A DNA stretch of 64,000 nucleotides from an uncultured Dehalococcoidia bacterium (GTDB taxonomy: Bacteria > Chloroflexota > Dehalococcoidia > Lucifugimonadales > UBA1123). Shown piece by piece: positions 48,461-64,000 of the stretch. The first letter of the stretch is position 1, and each line of letters begins with the position of its first letter. The stretch lies in NCBI GenBank assembly GCA_958296105.1, contig OY282441.1, positions 2,984,773 through 3,048,772 on the forward strand. Reading direction: 5' to 3'. The position numbers and the translations under genes were made by a program. Under the pieces are notes generated by a model, which was not told where the DNA came from, made no database searches, and saw only the letters and a program-made list of their open reading frames with translations.

Positions 48461-48535
48461 GCCCCCGTAGCTCAGTGGATAGAGCGCTGGCCTCCGGAGC
48501 CAGGCGCGTGGGTTCGAGTCCCGCCGGGGGTACCA
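48461..48535 (+). tRNA. tRNA-Arg (anticodon CCG), CCA encoded
   Basis: Cloverleaf by hand: acceptor GCCCCCG/CGGGGGT, D-arm GCTC-AGTGGATA-GAGC, anticodon arm CTGGC-CTCCGGA-GCCAG, T-arm GTGGG-TTCGAGT-CCCGC, then ACCA. Confidence 0.9.
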
Positions 48536-49410: not shown

Positions 49411-49415
49411 GGCGA

Positions 49416-50387
49416 TCAGAACCAGTTCGCCTTGTCGACCACATTCCGCAGATCCCTGCCCTCGCTGAAGCGAACGCAGTTGTCGATGAACAGCTCGGCG
49501 CGTCGGTCGTCCAGATACGGCCCCGCGCCCGCGCAGTGCGGCGTTATGATCACGTTGGGCATTCGCCACAGCGGATGATCGGACGGCAGAGGCTCCGTCT
49601 CGAACACGTCCAGCGCCGCGCCCCTCAGCGCCCCCTCTTCCAGCGCCCGCGCCAGATCGTCCAAGACGACCGTCGCGCCCCGACCGATGTTGATGAAGTG
49701 CGCGCTCGGCTTCATCAGACGGAACTTCTCGATGGTGAACAGCCGCTGCGTCTGCGGAGTCTCCGGGACGGTGACGATCACGAAATCGGCGCGCCCAAGC
49801 GCATCGTCCATGTCTTCGGGGCGCGCAAGCTCGGCAACGCCTTTGGGCGCAGATTCCACCCTCGGATCGACTCCGATGACAGTCATGCCGAACTCCGAGC
49901 ATAGCCGCGCCGTCTCCCCGCCGATGCCCCCGATCCCGACCACCGCCGCCGTGGAGTCCGGCAGATTCACTATCTCGTACCCCGGCCTCCACTCCGCCCT
50001 CGTCTGGCTGCGAACATAGGCGTGAATCCCTCTGGCGAAGGCTAGGACGTATGCCATGATGTGGTTGGAGATGTGATCGTTGTAGATGTCCCGCGTGTTG
50101 GTCACCACAACGTCGCTGCCGATCAGGTCCGGGTGGTAGTAGCCCGCCGCTGGCCCTGCCTGCGGACAGGCGATCCAGCGAAGATTGCCCCTGCGCTCGA
50201 ACACTTCCGGAACGATGTCGCCAAAGGCGGCGTCCGCCTCGCCGATCATCTCCATCGCCTCGCCCGCCGAGCGCGCCACGTTGACCCGTATGCCGGGAAC
50301 GGCATCCTCGAGACGGCGCGGCCACTCGTCCAAGTGGCTGCCCTCGGACTGTCTGCCCGTTCCCATGATCAGCAGGTTGAAGGTCAT
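49416..50387 (-). CDS. D-isomer-specific 2-hydroxyacid dehydrogenase family protein
   Basis: 323 aa. NAD-binding VGIGGIGGETARL, INIGRG, D..E...TPHCAG catalytic context. Confidence 0.85.
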   Translation of the reverse strand: MTFNLLIMGTGRQSEGSHLDEWPRRLEDAVPGIRVNVARSAGEAMEMIGEADAAFGDIVPEVFERRGNLRWIACPQAGPAAGYYHPDLIGSDVVVTNTRDIYNDHISNHIMAYVLAFARGIHAYVRSQTRAEWRPGYEIVNLPDSTAAVVGIGGIGGETARLCSEFGMTVIGVDPRVESAPKGVAELARPEDMDDALGRADFVIVTVPETPQTQRLFTIEKFRLMKPSAHFINIGRGATVVLDDLARALEEGALRGAALDVFETEPLPSDHPLWRMPNVIITPHCAGAGPYLDDRRAELFIDNCVRFSEGRDLRNVVDKANWF

Positions 50388-50452: not shown

Positions 50453-51436
50453 TCAGCGCGTTCTCGGGTTGAGAACGTCGTTGAGCGCGTCCCCGAACAG
50501 ATTCCAGCACAGTACGAGCGTCCAGGATACGATGCCCGGGGTGAGCAGCATCCAGGGCACCTCGCGCAGCGCGCTCAGGCTTCCGGCTTCCAGCAGCATG
50601 GTTCCTAGGCTCGGCCTCGGCGGCTGTATGCCCAGCCCCAGCCAGCTGAGGATTATCTCCGCGCCCACCATCGAACCCATGCCCATGGATACGGCTACCA
50701 CAATGGGGCTTATGGCGTTGGGCAGCAGGTGGTTGAACAGGATGCGCGGCGCGCTCGCGCCTATGGCTTGCGCCGCGTCCACGTACTGAGTTCGCTTCAG
50801 GTACAGAACCTGCCCGCGCACCAGCCTGGCTATGCCGAACCAGCTGAACGCCAGCAGCGCGAACGATATGACCACGTAATCCGCCAGCCCCGATCCAATG
50901 ATTCCGTCGAGGAACGTTTGATCCTCCAGCGAGCGGATGAAGCTCTTGATGCGAGGGCCGAGCGTGGCAGCCAGTATGATGATTAGCAGGATGTCCGGAA
51001 AGGCGGCGAACACCTCCCCAACGCGCATGATCAGCGCGTCTATCCACCTGCCGAAGTACCCAGACACCAGCCCCATAGTCACGCCGATCAGCAGCCCGCC
51101 CGTGGCCATGGCGACCACCGTTATTATGACCGTGTTCTGTATCCCCCACATGACGCGGGTGAGCAGGTCGCGCCCCTTGAGATCGGTTCCCGCCCAGTGA
51201 TCGACGCTCGGCGGCTTGCGGATGGCGGTGTAGTCCTGCGCGGTGTACTCGTATGGCGCGATGAACGGCGCAAGTATGCCCGCGCCGTACAGCCCGATCA
51301 GCAGGACCACGCTGAGCATGGCGAGCTTCTTGCGCACCAGACGCGACATAGCGCGCGCCAGATGCCCGCGCCCCCCTTGGTCGCTCCCCGCGTCCTCCAG
51401 CGCCGCGATTGCGGGTCTCGACCGCTCCATACTCAC
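50453..51436 (-). CDS. ABC transporter permease (peptide/nickel type, DppC/OppC-like)
   Basis: 327 aa, 6 TM. Binding-protein-dependent transport motif region (YVDAAQAIGASAPRILFNHLLPN). Confidence 0.85.
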   Translation of the reverse strand: MSMERSRPAIAALEDAGSDQGGRGHLARAMSRLVRKKLAMLSVVLLIGLYGAGILAPFIAPYEYTAQDYTAIRKPPSVDHWAGTDLKGRDLLTRVMWGIQNTVIITVVAMATGGLLIGVTMGLVSGYFGRWIDALIMRVGEVFAAFPDILLIIILAATLGPRIKSFIRSLEDQTFLDGIIGSGLADYVVISFALLAFSWFGIARLVRGQVLYLKRTQYVDAAQAIGASAPRILFNHLLPNAISPIVVAVSMGMGSMVGAEIILSWLGLGIQPPRPSLGTMLLEAGSLSALREVPWMLLTPGIVSWTLVLCWNLFGDALNDVLNPRTR

Positions 51437-52368
51437 TGGTACCTGATCCTAGGGTCCACCATCGAGTACGCTATGTCCGCCAGCAGGTTCGCCAAGACGA
51501 ACGCCGTAGCGCCTATCAGCGTTATCGCCATGATGATCGGATAATCTCGGTTGAAGATCGAGTCTATCGCCAGGCTGCCCATTCCGGGGATGCCTAGTAT
51601 CCGCTCCGCTATGAATCCCGTGCTGAGCATACCCGCCAGCGTGAATGAGAGAACCGTGATGATGGGTATGACGGCGTTCTTGAAGATGTGTCGATAGTCG
51701 ATCGCAAGAGCGGACAGCCCCTTCGCTTGAGCGGTGCGAATGAAGTCCTGCCCCATCACGTCCAGAGTGCTGGCGCGCATCAGCCTGACCAGCCCGGCAA
51801 CGCCCGGAATGCCCATGGTGACTGCCGGAGTGATGATCCGCACGTCCCAGAAGCCGCCCCAGCCCGAGCATGGCAGAAGGTCCGTCTTCAGACAGGTCAC
51901 CCACAGGAAGGCGGGGATGCTGACCATGATCGGGATGGACATGAGGATGAGCGCCGTCGCCACGACGCTGGGGTCTATCCAGCTGCCCTGCTTGTGGGCG
52001 ATGAAGAAGCCGAGCGGAAGCCCGATGACGAGGCTGACGACCAGCGCAGCCACGTTGACTTGGAACGACACCCATATCTTGGCAGTCAGGAGATCGGACA
52101 CCGGACGCCCCCGAAATCGGTAGCTCTCTCCGAAATCCCCTTTCAGCGCCCCCCACACGTAGCCCGCGTACTGGATTGCGAACGGCCTGTCCAGCCCGAG
52201 CTGCGAGCGAAGGTTCTTCGTCACCTCCGAGCTGGGATCGTAGCGATTGCCGAGCATCACCTGAACCGGGTCGCCCGGCCCGAAGCGCCCCAGCGTGAAG
52301 GTGACGAAAGACACCGCCAGCAGCAGCACCGGCAGCCAGAGCAGCCTGCGGGTTATGTACAGCCACAT
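51433..52368 (-). CDS. ABC transporter permease (DppB/OppB-like)
   Basis: 311 aa. MWLYITRRLLWLPVLLLAVSFVTF N-terminus, FIRTAQAKGLS EAA-type loop. 4-nt overlap with the downstream permease. Confidence 0.85.
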   Translation of the reverse strand: MWLYITRRLLWLPVLLLAVSFVTFTLGRFGPGDPVQVMLGNRYDPSSEVTKNLRSQLGLDRPFAIQYAGYVWGALKGDFGESYRFRGRPVSDLLTAKIWVSFQVNVAALVVSLVIGLPLGFFIAHKQGSWIDPSVVATALILMSIPIMVSIPAFLWVTCLKTDLLPCSGWGGFWDVRIITPAVTMGIPGVAGLVRLMRASTLDVMGQDFIRTAQAKGLSALAIDYRHIFKNAVIPIITVLSFTLAGMLSTGFIAERILGIPGMGSLAIDSIFNRDYPIIMAITLIGATAFVLANLLADIAYSMVDPRIRYQ

Positions 52369-52573
52369 GCCGAGAAGTCCCTTCTTCCCTCACGTCCTCT
52401 TACACCTTGCGCGCACATGATACACCCTTTCACCACTCGGCGGGGAGAGTATGAGAGAAGAAATCCCTTCTCCTTGGCGTGAGAAGTCCAGTCTATATAA
52501 ATCCCTTCCCCCTTGGCGTGAGAAGGCTAGGATGAGTGGGATTCCTTCGCATCCTAGCCCCACTTGGCGGGTA

Positions 52574-52606
52574 GAAAAAATCCCCTCTCCCGCAATGGGA
52601 GAGGGG
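52574..52606 (-). terminator. Intrinsic terminator/attenuator between the substrate-binding gene and the permease genes
   Basis: Minus strand reads CCCCUCUCCC-AUUGC-GGGAGAGGGG followed by AUUUUUUC, 20 nt after the binding-protein stop. Confidence 0.6.
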
Positions 52607-52626
52607 ATCGGGGATCGTCTTCTCGA

Positions 52627-54388
52627 TCACTCGTCGCTGAAGTGGACGTCCTTCAGCTTCGGCACGATCATCGGCGTCACGCGGTAGTCTTTCACGTGGT
52701 CTTTGATCAGCACGTAGCGCTCGCCGCTGTACCACAGCGGCAGCCATGCCGCGTCCTTCACGATCAGATCCTCCGCCTCTTGGTACAGCTCGACCCGTCT
52801 GTTGACGTCAGGCTCCACTCTTGCCCGTTCCAGTATCGCATCCGCATCGGGGTTGGAGTATAGGCCGTGGTTGAGCGAGCTTTCGGTGTGGAACAGGATG
52901 TCCAGAAAGTCCTGCGGATCCGGGTAGTCCGCCTGCCAGCCAAGCCCTGCGTATGCTTGGAACCTGTGCTGATCCAGGTCCTGAAGGTAGGTCGCCCATT
53001 CGACCTGCTGTATCTCCACCTCCACCCCCAAGACCTGCTTCCACATCTCGATCACCACTTCCAGGTCCAGCCCTATGGTGCCGCCCGTGCCGGGTACGGT
53101 CACGACGATCCTGGGCCGCGTGGCGGGGTCGGCGTATGCCGAATCCTCCAGCAGGCTCTTCGCCAGCTCCTCGTCGTAGCGCAGCCCGTCAAGCTCCGTG
53201 TTGAAGCCCGGGAAGCCCGGAGGCAGTATGCCGTATGCCGGCTCCACCAGATCCGAGAGGACTTCCGCCGAGATCAGCTCTTTGTCCACCGCGTGGTTGA
53301 GCGCCTTCCTGAAGTTCGCGTCGTCGAAGGGGGCCATGCTCGTGTTGAAGCCCACGTAGGATACGCTGAAGTCCGGCGGAGCCACCACCAGCTCCCTGTT
53401 GAGGTCTTCGGACGGGTCGAGAACACGGTCGAGGTCGAACAGACCCACTCCCGTAATGTCTATCTCGTCGTTCTCGTACATCGCCATCGACTGCCCGCCC
53501 GCGAGGTTCATGGCTATCGAATCGAGGTGCGGCGGCTCGCGGTAGAAGTTCTCGTTGCGCTCCAGGATGATGCGCTCGCCGATGCGGTACTCCTTCAGCT
53601 TGAACGGGCCGCTCCCGTTCGGATTGTCCGTCCACGTCCTGCCGCCGCTCTCGACGTTCTCGCGGTCGAGAACGTACGCAGTCGGGTAGGTCAGCTTGGC
53701 GAGGAAGTACGCCTTCGGCGCGTCTATCTCTATCTGCAAGGTCGATTCGTCTATCACCCTTATTCCGCTTATGTTCGTGGCGTCGCCTTCCAGCACCGCC
53801 TCCACTCCCACGATGTCCTTGAGGTAGGTATCGGCAACCGGAGAGGCGGTATCCGGGCTGGCGGCGCGCTCTATCGACCACTTGAAATCCGAGGCGGTTA
53901 TGCGCTTTCCATCGTGGAACTTGGCGTTCTCCCTCAGATAGAAGGTGTACACGGTGCCGTCGTCGCTCACGTCCCAGCGTTCGGCGATGTCCGGCGCCAG
54001 CTGCAAATCGCTGTCGAGCGCCACGAGTCCGCTGAACACCTCGACCACCACGCCCGAAGATGTCGTGTCCGAAGTGAGGTGCGGATCCAGGGTTGGGGGA
54101 TCGGCCCACAGCCGCCGGAATACGCCGCCCTCCTCGGTGTCCTCTGCGACTGCCGGCGCGGACTGCGCCTGAACAGGGGTCGGCGCCGTAGCGGGCGCAG
54201 TCCGTAGGCGCAGGCGCCATGGCGGGCGCGACGACAGGCGCGGGCGCCGCCGTGGCAGTCGCCGGAATCTCCGTGGCGACTGCCACGGCCTGCTCTGCCG
54301 GCTCCGGCTCCGGCTCGTCCGAGCCGCCGCACGCCAGCGCGCCAATCGCTGTTATCGAAAGTAGAAGGAAGATCGCCGCTCTAATCAT
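52627..54388 (-). CDS. ABC transporter substrate-binding protein (family 5, peptide/nickel type) with an apparent frameshift near 54.2 kb
   Basis: The mature body (from GGVFRRLWADPPTLDPHL...) is in the frame of ORF 52627..54345. The only signal peptide/lipobox (MIRAAIFLLLSITAIGALACGG, ATG 54388) is in another frame. The body frame is closed by TAA just upstream of 54345. Confidence 0.7.
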
Positions 54389-54413: not shown

Positions 54414-55509
54414 CTATCCAACCGTTGTCTTCAGATACGATGTGATGAATCCGTCCAGATCGCCGTCCAGCACCGACTCTGCGCTCGATACGGAGTGATC
54501 GGTGCGGTGATCCTTGACCATCTGATACGGATGCAGCACGTAGCTTCTGATCTGATTGCCCCACTCCGGGGATATATGCTCGCCCTTGATTCGCGCCATC
54601 TCCTCAGCGCGCCGTTTCATCTCCAGCTCCGCCAGCCGCGCCATCAGAATTCTCATCGCTATCTCGCGGTTCTGGTGCTGGGAGCGCTCGTTCTGGCAGC
54701 TCACCCTCACCCCTGTGGGCAGGTGAATTATCCTGACCGCCGTCGAGTTCTTCTGAACACTCTGCCCGCCGTGTCCGCCCGCGCGGAAGGTGTCTATCCT
54801 GATGTCGTCCGCGCTCACGCTCACGTCCGTACCTTCTTCCACCTCCGGCATCACCTCCGCCAGCGCGAACGAGGTGTGGCGCGCGTGGTTGCCGTCGAAA
54901 GGCGATATCCTCACCAGCCGATGAACCCCCTTCTCCGCCTTCAGGTAGCCGTAGGCGTTCAGCCCGGACACCTGCACCACCACGCTCTTGATTCCCGCCT
55001 CCTCTCCCGGGGAGACGTCGAGAACTTCCGTGCCGAACCCCCTGCGCTCCGACCATCTGAGATACATTCTCATCAGCATCTGCACCCAGTCCTGAGAGTC
55101 CACCCCGCCCGCGCCCGCGTGGAGCGCGAGTATGGCGCTGCGCTCGTCGTACTCGCCGGACAGCATCAGCTCGAACTCCAGCCGCTCCAGAGTCGAAGCC
55201 AGCTCGGCAAGCTCCTCGCCCATGGACTCGGTCAGAGACTCGTCCCCCTCTTCCATCGCCATCTCCAGCAGCTCGCGCAGATCGCTGGCGCGGCTGTCCA
55301 GCCCTGTCCAGGATTCGATCTCCCCCTTGAGGTCGGACATGCGCCGCATCACGCTCCGCGCCCTGCGGTTGTCTTCCCATATCGAGGGGTCCGCCGCCTG
55401 CTTTTCCAGATCGGCTATCTCCCTTGCCTTGCCGTCTAGGTCAAAGACGCACCATGAGATCCGAGATTCTGGAGCGCACCCCGTTCAACTGTCCGCTTAT
55501 GTCCAGCAT
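54414..55509 (-). CDS. prfB: Peptide chain release factor 2 (programmed +1 frameshift)
   Basis: Frame 0 reads MLDISGQLNGVRSRISDLMVRL then CUU UGA C (55446-55440). The +1 frame continues DLDGKAREIADLEKQAADPSIWED..., with SPF and GGQ motifs. Confidence 0.9.
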
Positions 55510-55686: not shown

Positions 55687-57252
55687 TTGCTCGACCTGCT
55701 GATCCAAAACGGCATGATCATAGACGGTACCGGCAACCCGGGCTACTACGGCTCCGTCGGCGTCGAGGGCGACAGGCTGACCGTCTTTCGCGGCTCGGTG
55801 GACGGCGTCGAGGCGGCGCGCGCGATCGACGCGCGGCGCATGGTCATCTGTCCCGGCTTCATAGACATGCACGCCCACTCCGGCCTGGTCCTGCTCTCCG
55901 AGCCTATGCACGAACCCAAAGTCAGGCAGGGCGTCACCACCGAGCTTATCGGAGTGGACGGCAACTCCTACGCGCCGTTCAGGTCTCAGCGAGACTTTCG
56001 CCTGTTCGTGGAGATGAACTCCGGGCTGGACGGCAGACCGCCGCTCCCGGGCTCGTGGTCCACCGTGGAGCAGTACCTAGACATGTTCGACCGCAGAGCG
56101 GCGGTCAACATCGCCTACATACTCGGAAACTCGCCCCTCAGAATAGACGCCATAGGCTGGGAATCCACACCCGCCACCGAGCGCGACCTAGCCAACATGA
56201 AGGCCATGATACGCGAGGCGATGCAGGAGGGCGCGCTCGGCATGTCCACCGGCTTGGACTATCCGCCCGGAGGGTACGCCAGCACGGACGAGCTGGTCGA
56301 GCTGTCCGCGCAGGTCGCCGAGCTTGGCGGCATCTACCATACCCACGTCAGATACAAGTCCGGAGACAGGTTCCTAGACCCGTTCAGAGAGGCGATAGAG
56401 ATAGGCGAGCGCAGCGGCGTTCCCGTCCACATCACCCACTTCTACCAGAAGTCGCCTGCGCCCGGCGGCGCGCCGCAGCTGCTCGCGCTGGTCGAAGACG
56501 CCGCCGAAGCCGGCCAGGACGTCACCTTCGACAGCTACCCATACAGCCTTGGCAGCACCCGAATCCTCATCGTGTTCCCAGACTGGATCCACGAGGGCGG
56601 CCCCGAGCGCCTCAAGCGCGCTCTGGCGGACGAGGACGCGCGCGAGAGGCTGAGAGACGAGGTCGAACCCAGAGCTCCCACGTGGCACGACATGTGGCTG
56701 ACGTACTTCCAGCGCCCCGAGAACCACGCCTACGAGGGCCGCTCCATCGCCGAGATTTCCGAGATGCGCCGACAGCACCCGGTGGATGCGCTGTGCGACC
56801 TCCTCATCGAGGAAGACCTTCAGACCTGCTACGTCGCCGAGGGGCTGAACCCCAAGACCCTGCCCGCGTTCGTCACACATCCCCTATCCATGGTGGGGAG
56901 CGACGCCGTTCTTCTCGGAGACTTCCCAAGCCCGCGCACCTATGGCTGCTTCCCCGTGATTCTGGCGGAGTACGCCCGAGACGAGCGCCAGATGTCCCTG
57001 CCCAACGCCATCAGGAAGATGACCTCGTTCCCCGCTCAGCGGCTCGGCATACAGGATAGGGGAGTATTGCGAGACGGCATGAAGGCAGACATCACCGTGT
57101 TCGACCCCCGTTCCGTGCGCGCCCCCGCCACTCGCGCCCAGCCCAAGCAGTTCCCCATCGGCATAGAGTACGTGATCGTCAACGGCGTCATCGTCATAGA
57201 CGGCGGCGACCACACCGGCGCGCTCCCCGGACGCGCGATACGGCGAGCGTGA
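55687..57252 (+). CDS. N-acyl-D-amino-acid deacylase (D-aminoacylase) family amidohydrolase
   Basis: 521 aa. LLIQNGMIIDGTG...PGFIDMHAHS metal-binding HxH and family-typical length. TTG start. Confidence 0.85.
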   Translation: MLDLLIQNGMIIDGTGNPGYYGSVGVEGDRLTVFRGSVDGVEAARAIDARRMVICPGFIDMHAHSGLVLLSEPMHEPKVRQGVTTELIGVDGNSYAPFRSQRDFRLFVEMNSGLDGRPPLPGSWSTVEQYLDMFDRRAAVNIAYILGNSPLRIDAIGWESTPATERDLANMKAMIREAMQEGALGMSTGLDYPPGGYASTDELVELSAQVAELGGIYHTHVRYKSGDRFLDPFREAIEIGERSGVPVHITHFYQKSPAPGGAPQLLALVEDAAEAGQDVTFDSYPYSLGSTRILIVFPDWIHEGGPERLKRALADEDARERLRDEVEPRAPTWHDMWLTYFQRPENHAYEGRSIAEISEMRRQHPVDALCDLLIEEDLQTCYVAEGLNPKTLPAFVTHPLSMVGSDAVLLGDFPSPRTYGCFPVILAEYARDERQMSLPNAIRKMTSFPAQRLGIQDRGVLRDGMKADITVFDPRSVRAPATRAQPKQFPIGIEYVIVNGVIVIDGGDHTGALPGRAIRRA

Positions 57253-57265
57253 GGCGAGCCGCCCC

Positions 57266-59182
57266 ATGTCCGCACTCAGATGGACGGGCGCAATCCTGCT
57301 GTCCCTGCTGCTGATCCCGACCACGTGCGCCGGCCTCGTGGCGATGGAGCTGGAAGGATCGGCTTCGGACCCGCAGTTCTACAAAGACCGCCTGCGAAAC
57401 GCCGACTTCTACGAATTCGCGCTGAACGATCTGACAGCGGCACTCATCCGCGAGGCGATCCGCAGCCGCCCCGACGTCCCCCCGCCCCTATCCGCCGCCG
57501 ATATGGTCGCGTCTCTGAACCGCGTGTTTCCCCCGTACTGGGCGCAGGCGCAGGCCGAATCGTGGATAGACCAGCTTGTCAGGTACATGACAGGCCGCCG
57601 AAACAGATTCACCGTGAACGTACAGGTCTCCGACCGCATCCCCGCCGCTACGGACGAAGCGCGCGCCATCTCGCGCAAGCTGGACATCCCACGACTTGCG
57701 ATCGACGCCATGGACGACGGCGAGCTTGACTCCATGGCCCGGGATCTCGGCTCACTGGGCATACGCATGGACCGCGAGCGTCTGCGAGATATCGCGTCCA
57801 CAGTGTTCGATGAGGCATGGACGAACGAGCAGGCGGACTCCGCCATAGACGCCGTCGCGCCCTACATGACGGGCGAGACTGACAGCTTCGAGTTTCGGAT
57901 CGACTTCCAAGACAGAGCGGACGCGGCGGCGGCGGCTGTGAAGGAAGTCCTGCGCGAAGTGGACTGGTACGCGCTGGCGTTCGATGAAGTGGTCGAGCCG
58001 ATTGTGAGAGACAGGATCGGAGACGCCGTCCTGCCCGCAGGCGTGCGCCTGTCCAGCGATGGAATCGTCCCCGTCATCAGAAGCTCGCTCCCGCGAGAGT
58101 CGTTCGAGCCGGTGGCGGAGGACACTATGGAGCAGGTGTCCCGATACGTGGTGGGCATGTCCGACCACATATCCGTCGCCATAGACCTGCGCGAGGACAA
58201 GCGCCGCGCTCATCCACTGCTGACCGACCTAGCGGTATCCACGTTCGATCTGGTCGTGACGAGACTGCCCCCCTGCTCCGGAGGCGTCACAACGTACGTC
58301 GCGCCCGCCGGTCTGTCGGGCCAATCCGCCGGTCGAATCCCCTTGTGCATGCCTGCCGAAGAGCCTGCGCGCGCCGAGGCCTTGACTGCGATAGCCGCGC
58401 TGCGCTCTTCCATGGATGACGGAGTGGAGCAGGTGATACTGTCCCGCGTACCCGACCGCATCGACCTGAGCGAACAGGACGTCAGAGAAGGTCTCGTTGG
58501 ATTCGGCGGCGCAGACGCCCGCCAGAAGCGAGACGCTGCGCTGAGCAGAATAGACGGGGCGAGGTCTCTGATGAGTCTCGGCATGACCTTCGGCGACGAG
58601 GATCTCAAGGCTTTGCTGCCCTCGCTGAATTTGCGCGGCTCGGATCCCGTGACCCAGCTGGAATCCGTTAGAGCGTTCTTGCGAGACGGCCAGCGGCTCA
58701 CCGAGCGCCACCTGCTGGACTTCTTGAAAGAGAACACCTATGGCGGCGATGAGTGGGTCGAGATCGTCCGCCTCTCGTTCTCGCGCGCGAGGTGGGCGCC
58801 GCTGTCCATCATGCTGCTCGCGCTCGCGCTGGCTGCCGCGCTCGGCATGACCGCCGGACGCCGCGCGCGCTCGCGCATCGCTTGGGGCGCGGGTGGAGTG
58901 GCGCTGTCCGCCGCCGTCGCCCTCGTCCTGTTCGGACCCGTGTTCGACCTGTTCGGACCTCCTGCGATGCAAGACGCGATGCGCCTCGTCATTCCGCCCG
59001 CCGATATCGGGTCCAGCCAGCGCCTCGTGACAAACAAGGCAGTGGAGATAGCCGTAGACGCCGCGCTCAGCCTCACCCGGGGAATCGCGCTCAAGTCAGC
59101 CGTCATCCTGTTCTTGGCGGCGCTGGTGACACTCGGCGCGACTCAGTGGGGAAAGATTATCAGGGAGCCTGACCGCCCCTGA
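57266..59182 (+). CDS. Hypothetical membrane protein (N-terminal TM, large extracytoplasmic region, 3 C-terminal TMs)
   Basis: 638 aa. The recurring internal motif Y(M/V)(T/V)G..(N/D).(F/I) occurs three times (RYMTGRRNRFTVNV, PYMTGETDSFEFRI, RYVVGMSDHISVAI). No family recognised. Confidence 0.5.
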   Translation: MSALRWTGAILLSLLLIPTTCAGLVAMELEGSASDPQFYKDRLRNADFYEFALNDLTAALIREAIRSRPDVPPPLSAADMVASLNRVFPPYWAQAQAESWIDQLVRYMTGRRNRFTVNVQVSDRIPAATDEARAISRKLDIPRLAIDAMDDGELDSMARDLGSLGIRMDRERLRDIASTVFDEAWTNEQADSAIDAVAPYMTGETDSFEFRIDFQDRADAAAAAVKEVLREVDWYALAFDEVVEPIVRDRIGDAVLPAGVRLSSDGIVPVIRSSLPRESFEPVAEDTMEQVSRYVVGMSDHISVAIDLREDKRRAHPLLTDLAVSTFDLVVTRLPPCSGGVTTYVAPAGLSGQSAGRIPLCMPAEEPARAEALTAIAALRSSMDDGVEQVILSRVPDRIDLSEQDVREGLVGFGGADARQKRDAALSRIDGARSLMSLGMTFGDEDLKALLPSLNLRGSDPVTQLESVRAFLRDGQRLTERHLLDFLKENTYGGDEWVEIVRLSFSRARWAPLSIMLLALALAAALGMTAGRRARSRIAWGAGGVALSAAVALVLFGPVFDLFGPPAMQDAMRLVIPPADIGSSQRLVTNKAVEIAVDAALSLTRGIALKSAVILFLAALVTLGATQWGKIIREPDRP

Positions 59183-59308
59183 AGATAAAAGCCGAAGCCA
59201 GACGCGACGCTGGAGAAGCCCCCAGCGCCACGCCCGCCGCAGTCAGACGCGCCAGCCGCCTGCTCCGCGTCCAGCCCCATCTTGACACCGAGACGGCGCA
59301 GACGGCGT

Positions 59309-62300
59309 TCACCCCCCCAAGACGGGCAGGACTATCTGCGATGGCCACTCCTCGCAGTGGTGTACCGTCTGGAGCGCGACCTCGTATGTCCGATCCATCC
59401 CGAGCGCCTCGCCCGTGTTGTGGTTCACGTCGAATCTGGGCCAGTTGCTCGAGCTCACGTCCACCCTGATCCTGTGGCCTGCGGCGAACACGTTGGACGT
59501 GGGGTACAGCTCGAATTCGAGCGCGTACACCTCTCCGGCTTCCATCAGCTCGGCGCGCTCGAAGCCGTTCCTGTATCTGGCGCGGATGATCGAGTCGGTA
59601 ATATTTATCGCAAGGCCCTCGGGGTACTCCGCGCGCGGCGGATAGACGTCTATCAGCTTGGCGGTGAAGTCCGTGTCCGGCGCGGACGACGACACCCACA
59701 GCCTGACCGTGATCGGCCCCGTGACCTCCACGTCCGCCCCGAGTTCGGGCGTCTCGAACGTCAGCACGTCCGCGCGCGCGTTCAGCGGCTGGTGATCCGC
59801 CGAGCCGTAGAACCGCGAGGGGTCTCCGCGCTGGTCGTATGCGCCCGGCTCCATGATCGGGTTGGCGGCCGATATGCCGCCCCCTATGGTGGGAACCGGG
59901 TCGGACGGGTCGAACAGATACGCCGTGAACTCAGGCTCGCCGTCCTTAGGCCGCTGCCGCGAAAGGCTGCCGTCCGCGTGGAAGTAGTGGGGGACGAACC
60001 GCGTTCCCGGCAGCGGCCAGTCTTCCGCCTGCCGCCACGCGCCCCCGTGATTCAGCCGATGCTCGCCGCCGATGCGCCCGTCGCCCCCTCCCATCGTGAA
60101 TATCCGCACCGGACCCCAGTCGGCGGCTTCTGTGCGCAGCCCTTTCAGGTGGTGGTCGAGCCACGCCAGCTTCAGATCGTTGTAGTCTATGTGCGAATCT
60201 AGGCCGAAGTCTATGTCGCCGGAGTGTGTGACTTCATACTGCCCGTGTGTCCACGGCCCCATCAGCAGACGCTGCGCAGACTGCTTGAGGCGGCTGAGCG
60301 CCATGTAGCTCTCGGTGGTGTTGCGCGCGTAGGAGTCGTACCAGCCGCCGAGATAGAGAGTCGGAACGTCCGCGTGCTGCTCGTAGTATTCCACAGGCGC
60401 GTAGCCGCGCTGCTTCCAGTAGTCCGTGTACTCCCCGCGCGTCTGAAGGTCCATCACCCACCGCTCCACCTTCGGAATGCGGCGGAGTATGGACGCGCCC
60501 TCGCGTATCGGGAAGTTCTCCGCCACTTCCGACATGCCGTTCTCGAATATGTTCTGAAGAGCCGCCCTGAGCGACGGGTCTGCCATCGCCTCCGGGCTGT
60601 CGACCGCCATGCGGTAGGCGTATATCAGGAAGCGCTGCTCCAGCGCGCCGTTCTGCCGCATCGAGCTGCTGAAGTAGTTGGAAGCGCCCACCGCCACGAT
60701 CATCGTGGCGAGATGCGGCGGGTCGAGCGTGGCGAGCGCGGCTTGGTCCGATCCCGCGTAGGAGTCGCCCATCGTCCCCACCTTGCCGTCGCTCCACTCC
60801 TGAACGCCGAGCCATTCCACAGTGTCGAAGCCGTCCTCCGCCTCCTCCGCGAACGGATACCATTCGCCCTCGGATGCGAAGCGTCCGCGCACGTCCTGAA
60901 TCGCCGTCACGTATCCGCGCCGCGCGAAGAACCTGCCCTTGCTCGTCTGCCGCGCCGTCGCCTTGTCGTATGGCGTGCGCTCCAGTATCACGGGGAATCG
61001 CCCCTGAGCGGGCGCGCCCATCAGAGCGGGGAAGTACAGATCGGTCGCCAGCAGCGCGCCGTCCCTCATCTCGATCATCACGTCGCGCCGAACGATCACC
61101 CCGTACCCCGCGCGCGAGCCTTCGTACACGGCGGGTTCCCCCTCGTCCTGTGTCATATCCTCGGTGACGGCATCCTGTACAAGCGCGGCTGTGGTTTCCG
61201 TCGCGTCTTGTTCCCCCCCGTCGTCCCCTTCGTCCTGTGTCAGGTTCTGCGCGGCGTCATCTTGTATAGGCGCGTCTTCGGTTTCCGTCGCGTCTTGTTC
61301 CCCGCCGTCGTCCGCTTCGTCCTGTGTCAGGTTCTGCGTGTTTGCATCCTGTACAAGCGCGGCTGCGTCCCCGCCCTCGTCCGCTTCGTCCGTTGGCATA
61401 TCTTGCGTGACGTCATCCTGTATAGGCGCGTCTTCGGCTTCCGTCGCGTCCTCGCCCTCGTCCGCTTCGACCTGTGTCAGGTTCTGCGTGTTTGCATCCT
61501 GTGAAATCGCGTCTTCGCCCTCGATGATTTCGTCTTCGTCTTCCGTTGCGCCTTGTTCCCCGCCGTCGTCCGCTTGGTCCTGTGTCAGATTCTGCGTGTT
61601 TGCATCCTGTATAGGCGCGGCTGTGGCTTCCGTCGCGTCTTGTTCCCCGCCGTCGTCCACTTCGTCCTGTGTCGGATCCTGTATAGGCGCGGGCGCAGGT
61701 TCGAGCCTCTGAACCGACTCCGCCTCCCGTTCCAGCTTGTCCCAAGAGTACGTGGCGGGGATGAGCCGCACGTCCGCCCAGACAGCCCCTTGGTCGGCGT
61801 AGTGCGCGCTTCCCGGATGCCCCGACGCGCCGAGCGGCACTATCCAGCGCGAGTTGTCCCAGTCGGACGTGTCCCACACGTAGCGCGCCACCGACGTACC
61901 CGTGACCGTGTAGCCTGTTCCGCCTTCACCCTGAAGCGATGCGTAGCTGCCGGCTTGCGGAGTGTCGCCGTCCCCGCTCACCGGGAATCCCGGCGGATTC
62001 AGCATCTCGGCGACGTCGGGGAACAGCGCAGACAGCGGATGTTCCGGCTTGGTGCGGTGGACGCCGCCCCACGTCCACGCGCTCACGTCTTCGCCCAGCC
62101 TGCTGCGGACGCCGTCGAAGATGAACGGCTTGTCCAGTATGTGAGCGGTTAGCGCCTCCCAGTCCGCCGCTTCCCCGTCCGCAGACGTGATGGAGGCGCG
62201 CCCGCTCCACAGGTCCGACACCATCAGAGACGCAAGCTGTCTCAGGTGTCCGGGCGCCCCTCTGCCCTGAGCCGAGATCGCCTCTTCGTAGAGCGCGCCC

Positions 62301-64000
62301 AAGATACCTGAAAATACGATGCCTTGCAGCTCGCCCCGAAGCACGCTGTATATCGTGGGCGCAACGAGGTCGCGCTCCATATCCCCGTCCCAGCTCGCCA
62401 GCAGCTCCCTGCACGTGTTCGCCCAGTCGTCTCGAGGCGCGTCCAAGTTGGCGATGAAGCCGGCGTATATCTGCGCCGGTATGGAAACCGTATCCGAGTG
62501 GATCGCCTCCATGTCCTCCACAGTCGCCTTCTCGATCTCGTCCAGCCTGTCGAATATGCGCTGCGCGCGGTAGTCGGGCGCGAAGTCGAGCGCGATGTAG
62601 TAGGGATAGTCCGCGTTGACGATGCGGTTGTTCGCCGTCACGATCACGCCCTCGCGCGGGTTGCGGATGCGCGCAAGCTCCTCGAAGGGTATCGCCCCCT
62701 GCCACTCGTGTTCGCCCGTCCAGCCGGGAACCGGCAGCCATGCGTTCGCCATGGAGCGGATTGGAACCTGCCCTCTGTTCAGGTAGCCGATGTCTCCGTG
62801 AACGTCCGCGAACACGAAGTTGTTGCACGGATCCACCCAGCCGCGCATGGACTCGTCCATCTCGTCCGCGTTCTGAGCGTACAGCATCAGCCTTATGCTC
62901 TCGAACCCCAGGTTCGGCCCTGCGGTGGCGGTATACTTGAAGGCAAGCCCTTTCGCCCCGTCCGCGCTCTCGGCGATCACCGGGCCGTGTTCCGTCACCC
63001 GAACCGCGATCTCCACCGGCTGCCCGTCTCGAACGTGGATCGTCTCGCGGCGGAGATCCCCCGCCTTCCACTCGCCCGCGTACTCGTACTCCACCCCGTC
63101 CGCCGTCTCGCGCAGGTTCTCAACGTACAGGTCTTGGTAGTCCGCGCCCGCGTGGGTCACGCACCAAGCCACACTCGCGTTGTGTCCGAAGTGCGGAAAC
63201 CCCGGAACGCCGGGGAACGACAGCCCTATGACGTCGAAGTCCGGACAAGCCACTTGGTTCTGGTAGTAGACGTTTGGCGTATCCAGCCCGCGATGCGGGT
63301 CGCCCGCCACCAGCGGCTTGCCGGACGCCGTCTTGGATCCGTGGACAGCCCAGTTGTTGGAGCCGGCGTCCACGTCCTCCAGCCACTCGATGGCGGCAAG
63401 CCCCTTCTCCAGCTCCTCGACGCCGTCTAGGAAGTCGCCGTCGTACTCGTCCCCCGGAGGCGCGATCACCAGCTGCCCCGGCTGGTACCCTCTGAAGAGC
63501 TCCGCCGCCCGCTCCGCTCCGAGCGTGTTCACCAGCTTGGCGCGCCACGTCTTGCCCTCGAACACGCCCATCATTATGTGCCTGACCTTGAACACCGATA
63601 GGCTGTCCTTCGGATCCCACGCGGTCGGGCGCGTCCCCGTCAGCCCGTACTCCACCGGCAGCGCGCTCGCGCTCTCGATGAAGGCGTTGACGCCGGCGGC
63701 GTATGCCTCGAACATGGCGCGCGTCTCTTCGGACAGAGCCGCCCAGTCCTGCTCCACCGATGCCGCGATCTGGAAGCGGCGCATCGTCCTGTCCTGTTCC
63801 ACGCCGGACCCTCCCACCAGCTCCGACCAGCGCCCACAGGCGCGAGCGCGGTCGCAGTCCATGTGCCACAGACGATCCTGAGCCGTGGCGAACCCCTGCC
63901 CGAAGAAGGCGTCGTGAGTCGTTCCAGCGCGCACGTGCGGGATTCCGTGACCGTCTCGGATGATGACGATGCGCCCGTCAGCGCCTTCCAGCGTCAGCGC
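59309..64000 (-). CDS. Penicillin-acylase-family (Ntn hydrolase) domain fused via an acidic repeat linker to a CocE/NonD (S15) hydrolase domain; 5' end beyond the window
   Basis: The frame stays open to the window edge (ALTLEGADGRIVIIRDGHGIPHVRAGT...). Acylase motifs are DRLWHMD and DAGSNNWAV (beta-chain Ser). The linker spans 61140-61705. The CocE/NonD part has YGVIVRRDVMIEMRDG..., GDSYAG and a C-terminal jelly-roll domain. There is no stop between the parts. Confidence 0.8.
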   Translation of the reverse strand, partial: ALTLEGADGRIVIIRDGHGIPHVRAGTTHDAFFGQGFATAQDRLWHMDCDRARACGRWSELVGGSGVEQDRTMRRFQIAASVEQDWAALSEETRAMFEAYAAGVNAFIESASALPVEYGLTGTRPTAWDPKDSLSVFKVRHIMMGVFEGKTWRAKLVNTLGAERAAELFRGYQPGQLVIAPPGDEYDGDFLDGVEELEKGLAAIEWLEDVDAGSNNWAVHGSKTASGKPLVAGDPHRGLDTPNVYYQNQVACPDFDVIGLSFPGVPGFPHFGHNASVAWCVTHAGADYQDLYVENLRETADGVEYEYAGEWKAGDLRRETIHVRDGQPVEIAVRVTEHGPVIAESADGAKGLAFKYTATAGPNLGFESIRLMLYAQNADEMDESMRGWVDPCNNFVFADVHGDIGYLNRGQVPIRSMANAWLPVPGWTGEHEWQGAIPFEELARIRNPREGVIVTANNRIVNADYPYYIALDFAPDYRAQRIFDRLDEIEKATVEDMEAIHSDTVSIPAQIYAGFIANLDAPRDDWANTCRELLASWDGDMERDLVAPTIYSVLRGELQGIVFSGILGALYEEAISAQGRGAPGHLRQLASLMVSDLWSGRASITSADGEAADWEALTAHILDKPFIFDGVRSRLGEDVSAWTWGGVHRTKPEHPLSALFPDVAEMLNPPGFPVSGDGDTPQAGSYASLQGEGGTGYTVTGTSVARYVWDTSDWDNSRWIVPLGASGHPGSAHYADQGAVWADVRLIPATYSWDKLEREAESVQRLEPAPAPIQDPTQDEVDDGGEQDATEATAAPIQDANTQNLTQDQADDGGEQGATEDEDEIIEGEDAISQDANTQNLTQVEADEGEDATEAEDAPIQDDVTQDMPTDEADEGGDAAALVQDANTQNLTQDEADDGGEQDATETEDAPIQDDAAQNLTQDEGDDGGEQDATETTAALVQDAVTEDMTQDEGEPAVYEGSRAGYGVIVRRDVMIEMRDGALLATDLYFPALMGAPAQGRFPVILERTPYDKATARQTSKGRFFARRGYVTAIQDVRGRFASEGEWYPFAEEAEDGFDTVEWLGVQEWSDGKVGTMGDSYAGSDQAALATLDPPHLATMIVAVGASNYFSSSMRQNGALEQRFLIYAYRMAVDSPEAMADPSLRAALQNIFENGMSEVAENFPIREGASILRRIPKVERWVMDLQTRGEYTDYWKQRGYAPVEYYEQHADVPTLYLGGWYDSYARNTTESYMALSRLKQSAQRLLMGPWTHGQYEVTHSGDIDFGLDSHIDYNDLKLAWLDHHLKGLRTEAADWGPVRIFTMGGGDGRIGGEHRLNHGGAWRQAEDWPLPGTRFVPHYFHADGSLSRQRPKDGEPEFTAYLFDPSDPVPTIGGGISAANPIMEPGAYDQRGDPSRFYGSADHQPLNARADVLTFETPELGADVEVTGPITVRLWVSSSAPDTDFTAKLIDVYPPRAEYPEGLAINITDSIIRARYRNGFERAELMEAGEVYALEFELYPTSNVFAAGHRIRVDVSSSNWPRFDVNHNTGEALGMDRTYEVALQTVHHCEEWPSQIVLPVLGG
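61140..61705 (-). repeat. Imperfect ~90-100-nt tandem repeats encoding the acidic Q/D/E/T-rich linker
   Basis: About 5-6 units of QDANTQNLTQDEADDGGEQDATE(T/A)EDAPI. The DNA motif TTCCGTCGCGTCTTGTTCCCC recurs exactly at ~61196, 61283 and 61628, with diverged variants at ~61439 and ~61541. Confidence 0.8.

Follow-up and report, generated by a model that had tools for sequence, protein, structure and literature searches.

Industry relies heavily on penicillin and cephalosporin acylases, and beta-lactam acylases are contained independently in both of the hydrolase families considered here, the S45 Ntn acylases and the CocE/NonD serine hydrolases. The organisms of interest, the SAR202 Dehalococcoidia, form a clade that is abundant in the deep ocean and is believed to break down recalcitrant organic matter. 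Among the S45 enzymes of solved structure, the acylase N176 of Pseudomonas sp. (4HSR/4HST), a class III glutaryl-7-ACA acylase, is a stand-alone enzyme that is exported and bears a signal peptide like other members of its family. The D-succinylase of Cupriavidus sp. P4-10-C (7EBY/7EA4) is a single-enzyme S45 Ntn hydrolase which takes a dicarboxylic acyl group (succinyl) off D-amino acids. The usual S45 layout is a signal peptide followed by the alpha chain, a spacer and the beta chain (PMC11241749), and in N176 the substrate is stabilized by R24b, Y32b, H57b, H70b, H178b, N242b and Y467b (PMC6712217). Among the CocE/NonD hydrolases, the cocaine esterase CocE of Rhodococcus sp. MB1 (1JU3 and others) is also a stand-alone enzyme, and the alpha-amino-acid ester hydrolases (AEHs) carry a carboxylate cluster of Asp209, Glu310 and Asp311, with Glu/Asp at +2/+3 from the catalytic Asp308 (PMC3890990).

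A 64,000-nucleotide stretch of DNA from an uncultured Dehalococcoidia bacterium (hereafter the window) was examined for a gene that joins these two families. A sequence-only reading of the window had proposed that more than 1560 stop-free codons fuse an S45 Ntn acylase to a CocE/NonD hydrolase. This was borne out, with 1563 sense codons running without a stop in one frame from 64000 to 59312 and a TGA at 59309-59311; the single ORF is real, and its strand, left unstated in that reading, is the minus strand. Both enzymes were found to be complete, with both active sites predicted to be intact. The motifs quoted earlier (AQDRLWHMD, DVDAGSNNWAV, TYSWDKLEREAESVQ and MGDSYAGSD) were all present, and the three domain models proposed as a check (Penicil_amidase, Peptidase_S15 and PepX_C) all matched. 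A frame scan of 57-64 kb detected no rival frame of more than 660 codons. The ORF is open at its 5' end, at the window edge. The features of the gene are as follows:

59309..64000, minus strand: fusion gene, 1563 sense codons plus TGA, with about 24 5' codons missing compared with homologues
63362..64000, minus strand: acylase alpha-chain part, aa 1-213, aligning to the alpha chain 4HSR_A (E 7e-34)
63359..63361, minus strand: Ser214 codon TCC, predicted N-terminal nucleophile, aligning to beta-chain residue 1
61706..63361, minus strand: acylase beta-chain part, aa 214-765, 41% identity to 4HSR_B
61127..61705, minus strand: inter-domain linker, aa 766-958, 193 aa with about seven imperfect 24-29-aa repeats
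61137..61524, no strand assigned: tandem DNA repeats encoding the linker, with periods of 69, 81, 87 and 150 nt and 76-83% matches
59312..61126, minus strand: CocE/NonD module, aa 959-1563 (TIGR00976, Pfam)
60239-61063, minus strand: Peptidase_S15 alpha/beta-hydrolase domain (Pfam)
60761..60763, minus strand: Ser1080 codon (GDSYAG), nucleophile, aligning with CocE Ser117
60335..60337, minus strand: Asp1222 codon (GGWYDSY), triad acid, aligning with CocE WYDGF
60245..60247, minus strand: His1252 codon (GPWTHG), triad base, aligning with CocE GPWSHS
59333-60115, minus strand: PepX_C jelly-roll (Pfam)

The two catalytic halves and their nearest relatives

The N-terminal half was found to match Penicil_amidase (PF01804) over aa 13-757 (E 2.6e-195; profile positions 4-674 of 675), and its score of 652 bits against a cut-off of 21.3 identifies a full-length S45 family match. 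The best solved relative was N176 (beta chain, E 4e-114, 41% identity over 533 aligned residues), followed by the D-succinylase (7EBY, E 7e-80), to which similarity was lower. Ser214 aligned to residue 1 of the beta chains 4HSR_B, 35SZ_C and 1GK9_B, and an alignment of 18 fusion proteins revealed G213-S214-N215, H236, R237, H270, H283 and N457 to be invariant. In N176 numbering, Ser1b and Phe58b are conserved together with His23b, Arg24b, Tyr32b, His57b, His70b and Asn242b, the last six corresponding to H236, R237, Y245, H270, H283 and N457, respectively; the oxyanion residue Asn242b (N457), the backbone position of residue 70b (H283) and His23b (H236) were all aligned and invariant. Five of the seven substrate-stabilizing residues of N176 are kept, while H178b is replaced by N393 and Y467b by G701 (the latter site adjoins an indel), so that glutaryl-type specificity is not assured; Ile176b is replaced by Pro. 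We place the predicted acylase half in the S45 branch of the class III glutaryl-7-ACA acylase N176 and the D-succinylase, and its precursor would be cut autoproteolytically between Gly213 and Ser214 (DAG/SNNWAV). Whereas N176 ends as a stand-alone enzyme, the beta chain of the fusion protein runs on into the linker and a second enzyme. Identity with the AHL acylase PvdQ was rejected, as the NF051460 model scored 48 bits against an equivalog cut-off of 950 and PvdQ structures matched at E ~3e-8 only. Elsewhere in the PF01804 family, members were observed fused to a siderophore-type GNAT (MbtK/IucB-like), to MFS exporters or to aminotransferases.

The C-terminal half had been described as a full CocE/NonD serine hydrolase with a GDSYAG nucleophile and a C-terminal jelly-roll, and both Pfam and NCBIfam agreed. 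Peptidase_S15 (PF02129) matched aa 980-1254 (E 7e-56), PepX_C (PF08530) matched aa 1296-1556 (E 5e-42), and TIGR00976 (CocE_NonD) matched aa 977-1561 (E 2e-120; 403 bits versus a cut-off of 66.3; model positions 2-548 of 550). The best solved relative was CocE (E 1e-81 across the whole 570-aa fold), with which the module shares the Ser-Asp-His triad, the oxyanion Tyr (TPYDK/NPYDK), the S-Y pair and the jelly-roll. Residues S1080, D1222, H1252 and Y1011 aligned with the GVSYLG, WYDGF, GPWSHS and NPYDK motifs of CocE, and Y1011, S1080-Y1081, D1222 and H1252 were invariant across the 18 fusion proteins. However, gaps are numerous in the part of the alignment that covers the lid/helical region, which gives the CocE pocket its shape, so the substrate probably differs from that of CocE. 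The AEHs of Xanthomonas citri (1MPX) and Acetobacter turbidans (2B4K) share the CocE/NonD fold and triad with the module (E 4e-44 to 1e-31). The earlier assignment to the alpha-amino-acid ester hydrolase family was too specific, because CocE is nearer (1e-81 versus 4e-44) and two of the three carboxylate-cluster positions carry no acidic residue, +2 and +3 from D1222 being Tyr1224 and Ala1225; AEH identity was rejected on these grounds. Identity with the Xaa-Pro dipeptidyl-peptidase PepX was likewise discarded (NF003780 and NF003781 at 46 versus 642 bits and 17 versus 881 bits).

Linker, N-terminus and integrity of the gene

The acidic repeat linker of about 190 aa noticed earlier was measured at 193 aa. 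It is composed of D37 A30 E27 Q23 T21 G15 with no K, R or H, bears a net charge of -64 and is presumably disordered. ATG codons within it (EDM/QDM), candidate internal starts for a separate CocE protein, are part of the repeat unit. Both of its other frames are interrupted by stops. Across the family the linker is hypervariable at 13-194 aa, and that of the window is the longest. Since tandem repeats of this kind are poorly handled by short-read assemblers, and since a two-gene state does exist inside the fusion clade (L007), we considered whether faulty assembly of the repeats, or a frameshift or stop codon missed in the linker, had joined two genes in this window only, which was the condition named beforehand as fatal to the fusion. 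This is scarcely credible. Both domains share one frame, and the repeat periods are all multiples of 3, so that repeat collapse or expansion would leave the frame unchanged. Long acidic linkers, of 97-150 aa, also occur in the nearest relatives (L001/P0003 and P0001, 72-78% identity), each of which is a single ORF, and the recurrence of the same single ORF in many independent assemblies answers the question of a hidden stop or indel without read mapping. By comparison of these sequences, the SAR202 (Dehalococcoidia) fusion is a genuine single gene, predicted to encode a two-enzyme polypeptide.

The first reading had left the 5' end, including any signal peptide, outside the window. The 5' end is indeed open, with about 24 N-terminal residues missing as judged by homologues, but those homologues lack a signal peptide. 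All 17 full-length fusions start about 24 aa upstream with a hydrophilic sequence, and a signal peptide was detected in none of the homologues. Reading upstream from the annotated start, an in-frame stop is reached after 17 codons in L001, 7 in L002 and 23 in L004, and over 75 loci the frame stays open for a median of 42 residues ahead of the conserved RDxxGIP motif. Neither exact look-ups of the 638-aa neighbour described below and of the adjacent amidohydrolase nor a search of metagenome contigs for an identical 60-nt sequence gave a match that would extend the contig, and the N-terminus was therefore inferred from homologues. Judged in this way, with the N-terminus of the window protein itself lying outside, the signal-peptide precursor of the usual S45 layout is absent; a signal peptide serves localization and not catalysis, so its absence is no bar to S45 membership. 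Because the homologues are without a signal peptide, the fusion enzyme is predicted to be cytoplasmic, unlike classical penicillin acylases.

Fused and split forms across SAR202

The same fusion ORF was found in about 19 protein clusters (17 full-length, plus two shorter ones still carrying both families; 64-75% identity) and in eight species-level Dehalococcoidia/SAR202 genomes, with an overall range of 62-78% identity, and a single ORF was verified in loci L001, L002, L004, L006, L008-L012 and L030. Among the best 150 matches in a library of 1.84 billion representatives, only one fusion (P0008) was present, the other long matches being tandem CocE proteins, CocE joined to a beta-lactamase fold and CocE with surface repeats. 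The architecture had been proposed to be undescribed. No paper was found in literature searches on SAR202 acylases, CocE/NonD with acylase, and PF01804 with PF02129, yet public databases already list the protein for dozens of SAR202 MAGs, under the sole name 'CocE/NonD family hydrolase'. Thus, the fusion is undescribed in the literature but not unique to the window.

In 13 more distant SAR202 genomes the acylase and CocE genes were separate and co-oriented, and in 10 of these they were directly adjacent, the acylase stop being followed by the CocE ORF (L014, L019, L028, L035, L040, L043, L046, L048, L061 and L084). The spacer in the ten adjacent loci ranged from a few to ~175 nt, with a Shine-Dalgarno-like motif visible in several. 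The remaining split loci carried 1.3-1.5 kb of inserted DNA between the genes (L015 and L025) or a gap of ~270-300 nt (L056). These unfused pairs (e.g., L028, L040, L061 and L084) are 52-57% and 60-67% identical to the two halves in the same order and orientation, and about half of the loci share the prfB and OppA-like gene neighbourhood of the fusion. They differ in that two polypeptides are made, with a stop, a Shine-Dalgarno-like motif (several loci) and a start in place of the linker. The CocE/NonD module of the fusion begins at YEGS, most adjacent split CocE ORFs begin M-x(2-5)-YEGS, and in stand-alone versions with an assignable start YEGS mostly lies 3-6 residues past the start codon.

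In a tree of the acylase half (neighbour-joining, midpoint-rooted, without bootstrap) the single-ORF fusions formed one clade, within which L007 encodes two genes at an overlapping TAA/ATG junction. The split adjacent pairs of the distant genomes point to an operon pair that was fused in one subclade, and the sequences indicate that the fusion arose there from a co-oriented neighbouring gene pair, acylase first and then CocE. For about 55 acylase paralogues at other genomic sites, no CocE gene lay within 6 kb, and the pairing is thus specific to the orthologous group of the fusion.

It could be argued that the two genes were chance neighbours joined by loss of a stop codon, that they act on unrelated substrates and that the fusion has no functional meaning. 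In the split forms the two genes overlap or stand almost next to each other, so stop-codon loss would easily yield a short-linker fusion; L007 records the reverse change within the fusion clade; neither the length nor the sequence of the linker is constrained; and SAR202 loci are crowded with diverse hydrolases. The ease of fusion and fission, together with linkers of 13-194 aa, also shows that the covalent linkage itself is not critical. We nevertheless regard a neutral fusion as unlikely, since (i) the order of acylase then CocE, the strand and the close spacing are kept in 13 species-level genomes at 52-57% and 60-67% identity; (ii) the fused state persists through the whole clade with both active sites invariant; and (iii) the paralogous acylases lack a nearby CocE gene.

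Gene neighbourhood and proposed function

The genes that neighbour the fusion in the window are convergent with it or lie in separate transcription units:

57266..59182, plus strand: 638-aa predicted membrane protein, convergent, no family match, with homologues in the same position at L012 and probably L004
55687..57252, plus strand: D-aminoacylase-like amidohydrolase (Amidohydro_3; 1M7J 5e-65, 3GIP 2e-55)
50453..54345, minus strand: Opp/Dpp-type peptide ABC importer genes (family matches)
52627-54345, minus strand: OppA-like binding protein (SBP_bac_5)
51433-52368, minus strand: OppB permease
50453-51436, minus strand: OppC permease

A simple scan of the 126-nt convergent gap (59183-59308) detected no promoter-like or terminator-like site. 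The membrane protein falls in the same similarity cluster as its homologue at L012, while the L004 counterpart is a 667-aa ORF with no Pfam match. The best solved relatives of the amidohydrolase are D-aminoacylase (1M7J) and N-acyl-D-glutamate deacylase (3GIP), and 13 loci show synteny between a D-aminoacylase-like gene and the acylase/CocE pair. An OppA-like gene lies beside the pair in about 20 loci, with permease clusters 4 and 8 in 14 and 8 loci, respectively, the lower permease counts being due in part to flanks that end too early. We infer a functional tie of the pair to the D-aminoacylase-like gene and the Opp importer. Synteny of these neighbours may merely mirror genome relatedness. 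The 5' neighbours varied from locus to locus almost throughout, which leaves no operon partner to fix the pathway. An MR_MLE gene beside the pair at L002 was considered as an N-acyl-amino-acid racemase and rejected, since NCBIfam groups it with galactonate dehydratases.

We favour, at a probability of roughly 0.6, a coupled function in which a cytoplasmic, tethered acylase and CocE-type hydrolase would act successively on one imported compound. The precursor would self-cleave at Gly213/Ser214 to give an alpha chain of ~26 kDa (including the ~24 missing residues) and a beta-chain-linker-CocE chain of ~145 kDa (about 130 kDa in short-linker orthologues), and the two chains would stay associated in the cytoplasm. 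The linker would serve as a flexible tether without forming a composite active site, and the two hydrolases would attack successive bonds of the same compound. The acylase may strip a polar, probably dicarboxylic N-acyl group (glutaryl-, succinyl- or gamma-glutamyl-like), while the CocE-type domain would cleave another bond, ester or amide, in that substrate or its product. Such a role would lie in the catabolism of organic nitrogen and dissolved organic matter (DOM), possibly of peptides that are N-acylated or contain D-amino acids and enter via the neighbouring Opp-type transporter, with fusion guaranteeing 1:1 co-expression and proximity.

A dedicated degrader of beta-lactams or AHLs, for antibiotic catabolism, resistance or quorum quenching, would hydrolyse the side-chain amide with its acylase and the lactam, lactone or ester with its serine hydrolase. 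The nearest solved relative of the acylase is a cephalosporin acylase, and the CocE/NonD relatives include the ampicillin- and cephalexin-forming AEHs as well as glutaryl-7-ACA acylases. Three loci have class A beta-lactamase-like genes next to the pair, three have PTE-type (lactonase-like) genes upstream, and a Peptidase_M19 dipeptidase gene lies between the acylase and CocE genes at L025; however, these neighbours occur in a minority of loci only. Moreover, the fusion is predicted to reside in the cytoplasm, while beta-lactam targets and the classical acylases lie outside it, the PvdQ model score falls far below its cut-off (48 versus 950 bits), the predicted pocket is polar and N176-like instead of hydrophobic as in AHL and penicillin G acylases, and the two AEH cluster positions that can be placed (+2/+3) carry no acid. 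We therefore consider this degrader very unlikely.

A biosynthetic or maturation enzyme might act in the manner of PvdQ, for instance by removing an N-acyl protecting group from the precursor of a siderophore or natural product, and its C-terminal half would take a part like that of NonD, the source of part of the CocE/NonD family name. The siderophore-type GNAT, MFS exporter and aminotransferase fusions of the same Pfam family would fit such a role, but NRPS, PKS and siderophore genes were detected in none of ~24 loci, and the neighbours that are conserved encode an importer and an amidohydrolase of catabolic type, which makes this explanation highly improbable.

A narrower form of the coupled two-hydrolase function can be proposed. 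The pair would be a dedicated SAR202 cytoplasmic two-step machine for imported peptides that contain D-amino acids or are gamma-glutamyl- or dicarboxylyl-linked, namely the remnants of peptidoglycan which make up much of the refractory dissolved organic nitrogen of the sea. The acylase would cut a gamma-D-glutamyl/glutaryl-type amide, the S15-type hydrolase would cleave the aminoacyl bond that is left, and the Opp importer and the D-aminoacylase-like enzyme encoded in synteny would work alongside them. We put this forward as speculation, quite unlikely in its full detail; if true, it would reveal the natural role of 'glutaryl-7-ACA acylases'.

If the fusion proved neutral, it would be a mere curiosity of gene organization. 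Otherwise, the acylase-CocE pair, repeatedly joined and split, connects the two hydrolase families in the manner of a Rosetta stone. It gives a hint of the natural role of such acylases, with the testable idea that both enzymes act on one substrate or pathway. The fused and unfused forms, with a linker series of 13-194 aa, provide natural material on whether tethering hydrolases matters, and the fusion may offer a new scaffold for bifunctional biocatalysts.

Architecture and predicted activity of the two halves

Every sequence motif quoted in the sequence-only reading was found in the translated minus-strand ORF, and the proposed single polypeptide of an acylase and a CocE/NonD hydrolase was confirmed, as profile searches matched both families (including Penicil_amidase, Peptidase_S15 and PepX_C) within one stop-free frame. 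This frame ran open to the window edge at its 5′ side, and no other frame of more than 660 codons was found in 57-64 kb. Residues are numbered from the first codon inside the window.

64000 to 59312, minus strand: fusion ORF, 1563 sense codons, TGA at 59309-59311
aa 13-757: Penicil_amidase (Pfam, E 2.6e-195, nearly the entire profile)
aa 766-958, nt 61127-61705, minus strand: inter-domain linker, 193 residues
aa 980-1254: Peptidase_S15 (Pfam, E 7e-56)
aa 1296-1556: PepX_C (Pfam, E 5e-42)
aa 977-1561: TIGR00976 CocE_NonD (NCBIfam, 403 bits against a cut-off of 66), a family which we take to include glutaryl-7-ACA acylases

Within the acylase half, Ser214 (SNNWAV) aligned with beta-chain residue 1 of solved acylases, and aa 2-187 aligned with the alpha chain of N176, the class III glutaryl-7-ACA acylase of Pseudomonas sp. 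N176. The best solved relative was of this type (4HSR_B, E 4e-114, 220/533 identical, 41%), followed by the D-succinylase 7EBY (7e-80) and then the unnamed acylase 35SZ; penicillin G acylases and class I cephalosporin acylases were far weaker matches, and the acyl-homoserine lactone (AHL) acylase PvdQ was marginal. N176 uses Ser1b for catalysis, with an oxyanion hole of Asn242b and the residue-70b backbone, and positions its substrate through R24b, Y32b, H57b, H70b, H178b, and Y467b (PMC6712217; b, beta-chain numbering). When compared with N176, the window protein was found to retain S1, H23, R24, Y32, H57, F58, H70, and N242, all invariant in an 18-sequence alignment, whereas H178, Y467, and I176 were changed to Asn393, Gly701, and Pro391, respectively.

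The C-terminal half aligned end to end with the Rhodococcus cocaine esterase (E 1e-81) and less well with alpha-amino-acid ester hydrolases (AEHs; 4e-44 to 1e-31). Its nucleophile Ser1080 (GDSYAG), Asp1222 (GGWYDSY), and His1252 (GPWTHG), together with the oxyanion residue Tyr1011 (TPYDK), agreed with the CocE residues and were invariant. AEHs are recognised by a carboxylate cluster whose members include a Glu and an Asp located +2/+3 from the catalytic Asp (PMC3890990); the window protein has Tyr and Ala there, and AEH identity was therefore rejected. Thus, the earlier assignment to CocE/NonD held, while its AEH component did not, the half being nearer to CocE and devoid of the +2/+3 cluster acids. 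Since the catalytic residues of both halves are kept and invariant, both look catalytically competent and under purifying selection.

The usual S45 layout is a signal peptide, alpha chain, spacer, and beta chain (PMC11241749). The 5′ end of the ORF is cut by the window edge, as had been pointed out; the signal peptide that might have lain beyond it was not borne out by the homologues. The 17 full-length homologues begin ~24 residues upstream of the edge and are hydrophilic there (M…SA(I/L)PDT.S…); in-frame stops lie 17, 7, and 23 codons before the annotated start in the homologous loci L001, L002, and L004; and across 75 loci the open stretch before the conserved RDxxGIP motif had a median of 42 residues, with no hydrophobic signal-like segment seen upstream of the motif. 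These short, hydrophilic N-termini without a signal-like segment suggest that the fusion protein is cytoplasmic, in which case the substrate must be imported or made in the cell. The precursor would self-cleave between Gly213 and Ser214 to leave an alpha chain of ~26 kDa (counting ~24 missing residues) bound to the beta chain. At its C-terminus the beta chain would be joined by a disordered polyanionic tether to the CocE-type half, a predicted ester/amide serine hydrolase. The beta-linker-CocE chain would reach ~145 kDa in the window protein, against ~130 kDa in orthologues with short linkers.

Distribution, linker and origin of the fusion

A search of 5.8 billion protein clusters identified 17 full-length clusters (1391-1550 aa, 64-75% identical) with the same three Pfam families and 2 shorter clusters retaining the acylase and S15 families, with fusion clusters derived from ENA, NCBI, JGI, and Logan assemblies. 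Among the best 150 matches in 1.84 billion 50%-identity representatives, the fusion was a single representative (P0008), and the remaining long matches had other architectures. With one genome scanned for each GTDB species, 517 tblastn relatives were confirmed; the organism labels of the best 80 loci were nearly all Dehalococcoidia, SAR202 or Chloroflexota, and ~55 of these 80 had no CocE partner. The fused or split state was determined by tblastn with each half alone and by stop-codon tracing, and an uninterrupted ORF over both halves was detected in L001/L005, L002, L004, L006, L008, L009, L010, L011, L012, and L030.

The linker was composed of 37 Asp, 27 Glu, 30 Ala, 23 Gln, and 21 Thr among its residues, with zero Lys, Arg or His (net charge −64), and was arranged as ~7 imperfect 24-29-aa repeats of the type (A)P-I-Q-D-x-x-T-Q-N-L-T-Q-D-E-A-D-D-G-G-E-Q-D-A-T-E. 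The tandem DNA repeats beneath it had periods of 69, 81, 87, and 150 nt, each divisible by 3, and both alternative frames contained stops. For the family, the recurrence of single ORFs across loci speaks against a stop or indel hidden in the linker, which would have split the ORF. Because the frame is the same on both sides of the linker and the repeat periods are multiples of 3, a frame artefact in the window itself is very unlikely; with single-ORF fusions recurring in other loci, we give next to no weight to an artefactual fusion.

With the …SVQ and YEGS motifs as limits, most fusions had a linker of 13-38 aa; the nearest relatives of the window protein had 87-150 aa, and the longest linker seen, of 194 aa, was that of the window. 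In 13 further species-level genomes the halves were separate genes in the same orientation (acylase 52-57% and CocE 60-67% identical to the window protein), with the acylase stop codon followed by a spacer of a few to ~175 nt and then the CocE gene. Several spacers carried a Shine-Dalgarno-like motif (AGGAGG in L028, AAGGAG in L048), and in most split loci CocE started as M-x(2-5)-YEGS, the exact end point of the linker in fusions. The short linkers resemble the split-form spacers in length, and the fusion may thus have arisen by stop-codon loss, with repeat expansion afterwards. Three loci differed at the junction:

L025, 4074-5339: Peptidase_M19 (renal-type membrane dipeptidase) gene between acylase and CocE, E 8e-113
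L015, 8317-9535: HAD hydrolase gene plus another ORF, whose sequence looks by eye like a GIY-YIG nuclease, between acylase and CocE
L007 (chromosome-level MAG), 8358-8420: overlapping junction, …SPRGIT-TAA, ATG 2 nt on, GAGGG before

By neighbour-joining of 81 acylase sequences (midpoint-rooted, without bootstrap support), the single-ORF fusions formed one clade, with the window sister to L001, and the adjacent-gene forms fell outside it, mixed with acylases having no CocE gene within 6 kb. L007 has two genes yet sits inside the fusion clade, which suggests either secondary fission or more than one independent fusion.

Unusual architectures were also observed among CocE-half relatives elsewhere (P0268, P0122, P0176), namely a 1109-aa CocE/NonD protein with a serine beta-lactamase fold (PF00144), two CocE in tandem (1088 aa), and a CocE with TSP3/InlB-type surface repeats. 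Acylase-family fusions elsewhere (P0027, P0040/46/54, P0068/72/101/115/116, P0070, P0077, P0083) had many partners, including a siderophore-type GNAT (PF13523, Streptomyces), MFS_3/MFS_1 transporters, a class III aminotransferase, a PALP enzyme, a subtilase (2326 aa), and a cyclophilin; penicillin-acylase-family proteins seem fusion-prone. Dehalococcoidia/SAR202 genomes were rich in cytoplasmic-looking paralogues of this family (L013-L083). A few loci with the acylase alone or with the acylase/CocE pair (L014, L019, L035, L024, L075) belong to MAGs that bear the label Proteobacteria, Planctomycetia, Syntrophaceae, Candidatus Entotheonella or Rokubacteria, which may reflect binning errors or horizontal gene transfer.

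Gene neighbourhood

57266-59182, plus strand: gene for a predicted 638-aa membrane protein, converging on the fusion gene, no Pfam/NCBIfam match
55687-57252, plus strand: Amidohydro_3 gene, before the 638-aa gene
L046, 4916-5875, minus strand: class A beta-lactamase-like gene adjoining the pair (Beta-lactamase2, E 3e-61; STFK/SDN/KTG)
L061, 4775-5932: phosphotriesterase-family (PTE, lactonase-like) gene

The 638-aa ORF had an N-terminal hydrophobic segment (signal- or anchor-like) and C-terminal hydrophobic segments; at the same position, L012 has a homologue and L004 a 667-aa ORF without a Pfam match. A simple scan of the convergent gap beside the fusion gene turned up neither a promoter nor a terminator consensus. 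The best solved relatives of the Amidohydro_3 protein were D-aminoacylase 1M7J (5e-65) and N-acyl-D-glutamate deacylase 3GIP (2e-55), and beyond its gene lie prfB, an OppA-like binding protein, OppB, and OppC. This order (acylase/CocE, amidohydrolase, prfB, Opp genes) was common to fused and split loci, and 13 loci had the amidohydrolase, 21 had prfB, and 20 had the gene for the binding protein. The neighbourhood hints at catabolism of peptides or N-acyl-(D-)amino acids; a biosynthetic maturation enzyme is highly improbable.

The 5′ side varied by locus, with a class I glutamine amidotransferase-like, Amidohydro_2, PTE-type hydrolase or class A beta-lactamase-like gene. In the split loci L061 and L084 the PTE gene immediately preceded the acylase gene, and in L028, also split, it stood three genes before it. 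The beta-lactamase-like gene adjoined acylase/CocE in three SAR202 loci (L046, L030, L040) and is probably not a true beta-lactamase, since it scored 118 bits against the NCBIfam class A cut-off of 200. These neighbours bear on the reading of the fusion as a beta-lactam- or AHL-specific enzyme, which we consider improbable.

The sole copy of CTTTGAC in the window (55440-55446, minus strand) lies upstream of the ORF at 54414-55352 (minus strand). A short frame there, MLDISGQLNGVRSRISDLMVRL-stop, terminates in CTT TGA, and reading in +1 leads through DLDGKAREIADLEKQ… into the PCRF/RF-1 ORF, which makes this the classical programmed +1 frameshift of prfB (release factor 2). Other features of the window included (i) a minus-strand ORF (47353-48363) with a Collagen triple-helix repeat match (E 1e-9), which could represent a genuine collagen-like protein or an artefact of composition in this high-GC genome; (ii) tRNA-Arg(CCG) at 48461-48535 (plus strand), the sole RNA gene by ARAGORN and Rfam; and (iii) a 595-aa minus-strand ORF (48538-50325) that is probably over-extended at its 5′ end, with 5′-3′ exonuclease domains confined to aa 308-569.

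Coupling of the two hydrolases and its meaning

Since linker length varies 15-fold and a stop/start junction can replace the linker, the two sites are most likely tethered, independent catalytic units and not one composite site. That the pairing persists argues that acylase and CocE serve one pathway, and a neutral fusion of unrelated neighbours is rather unlikely. Of the characterised enzymes, those closest to the acylase half take off dicarboxylic acyl groups (glutaryl, succinyl), and the acylase has a polar pocket. Our preferred reading, sequential hydrolysis of two bonds in an imported N-acylated compound, is given a probability of about 0.6 for pathway coupling in general; any specific substrate of the pair is held with much lower confidence.

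Both halves belong clearly to known families. The novelty lies in the combination, an apparently cytoplasmic S45 acylase with a second hydrolase on its beta chain, together with the underlying conserved acylase-CocE gene pair in SAR202. A literature search found no paper on the fusion or on the gene pair, in agreement with the claim of an undescribed architecture, though the sequences are public; in NCBI/IMG they are named only 'CocE/NonD family hydrolase [SAR202 cluster bacterium]' (e.g., MDP6798216.1), which hides the acylase half. Penicillin acylases and CocE were likewise unmentioned in the SAR202 genome papers examined (including PMC6946804). A shared substrate, if found, would raise the weight of the finding; since the dissolved organic nitrogen of the sea is dominated by bacterial remnants rich in D-amino acids (discussed in PMC6946804), a gamma-D-glutamyl peptide derived from peptidoglycan is one candidate.
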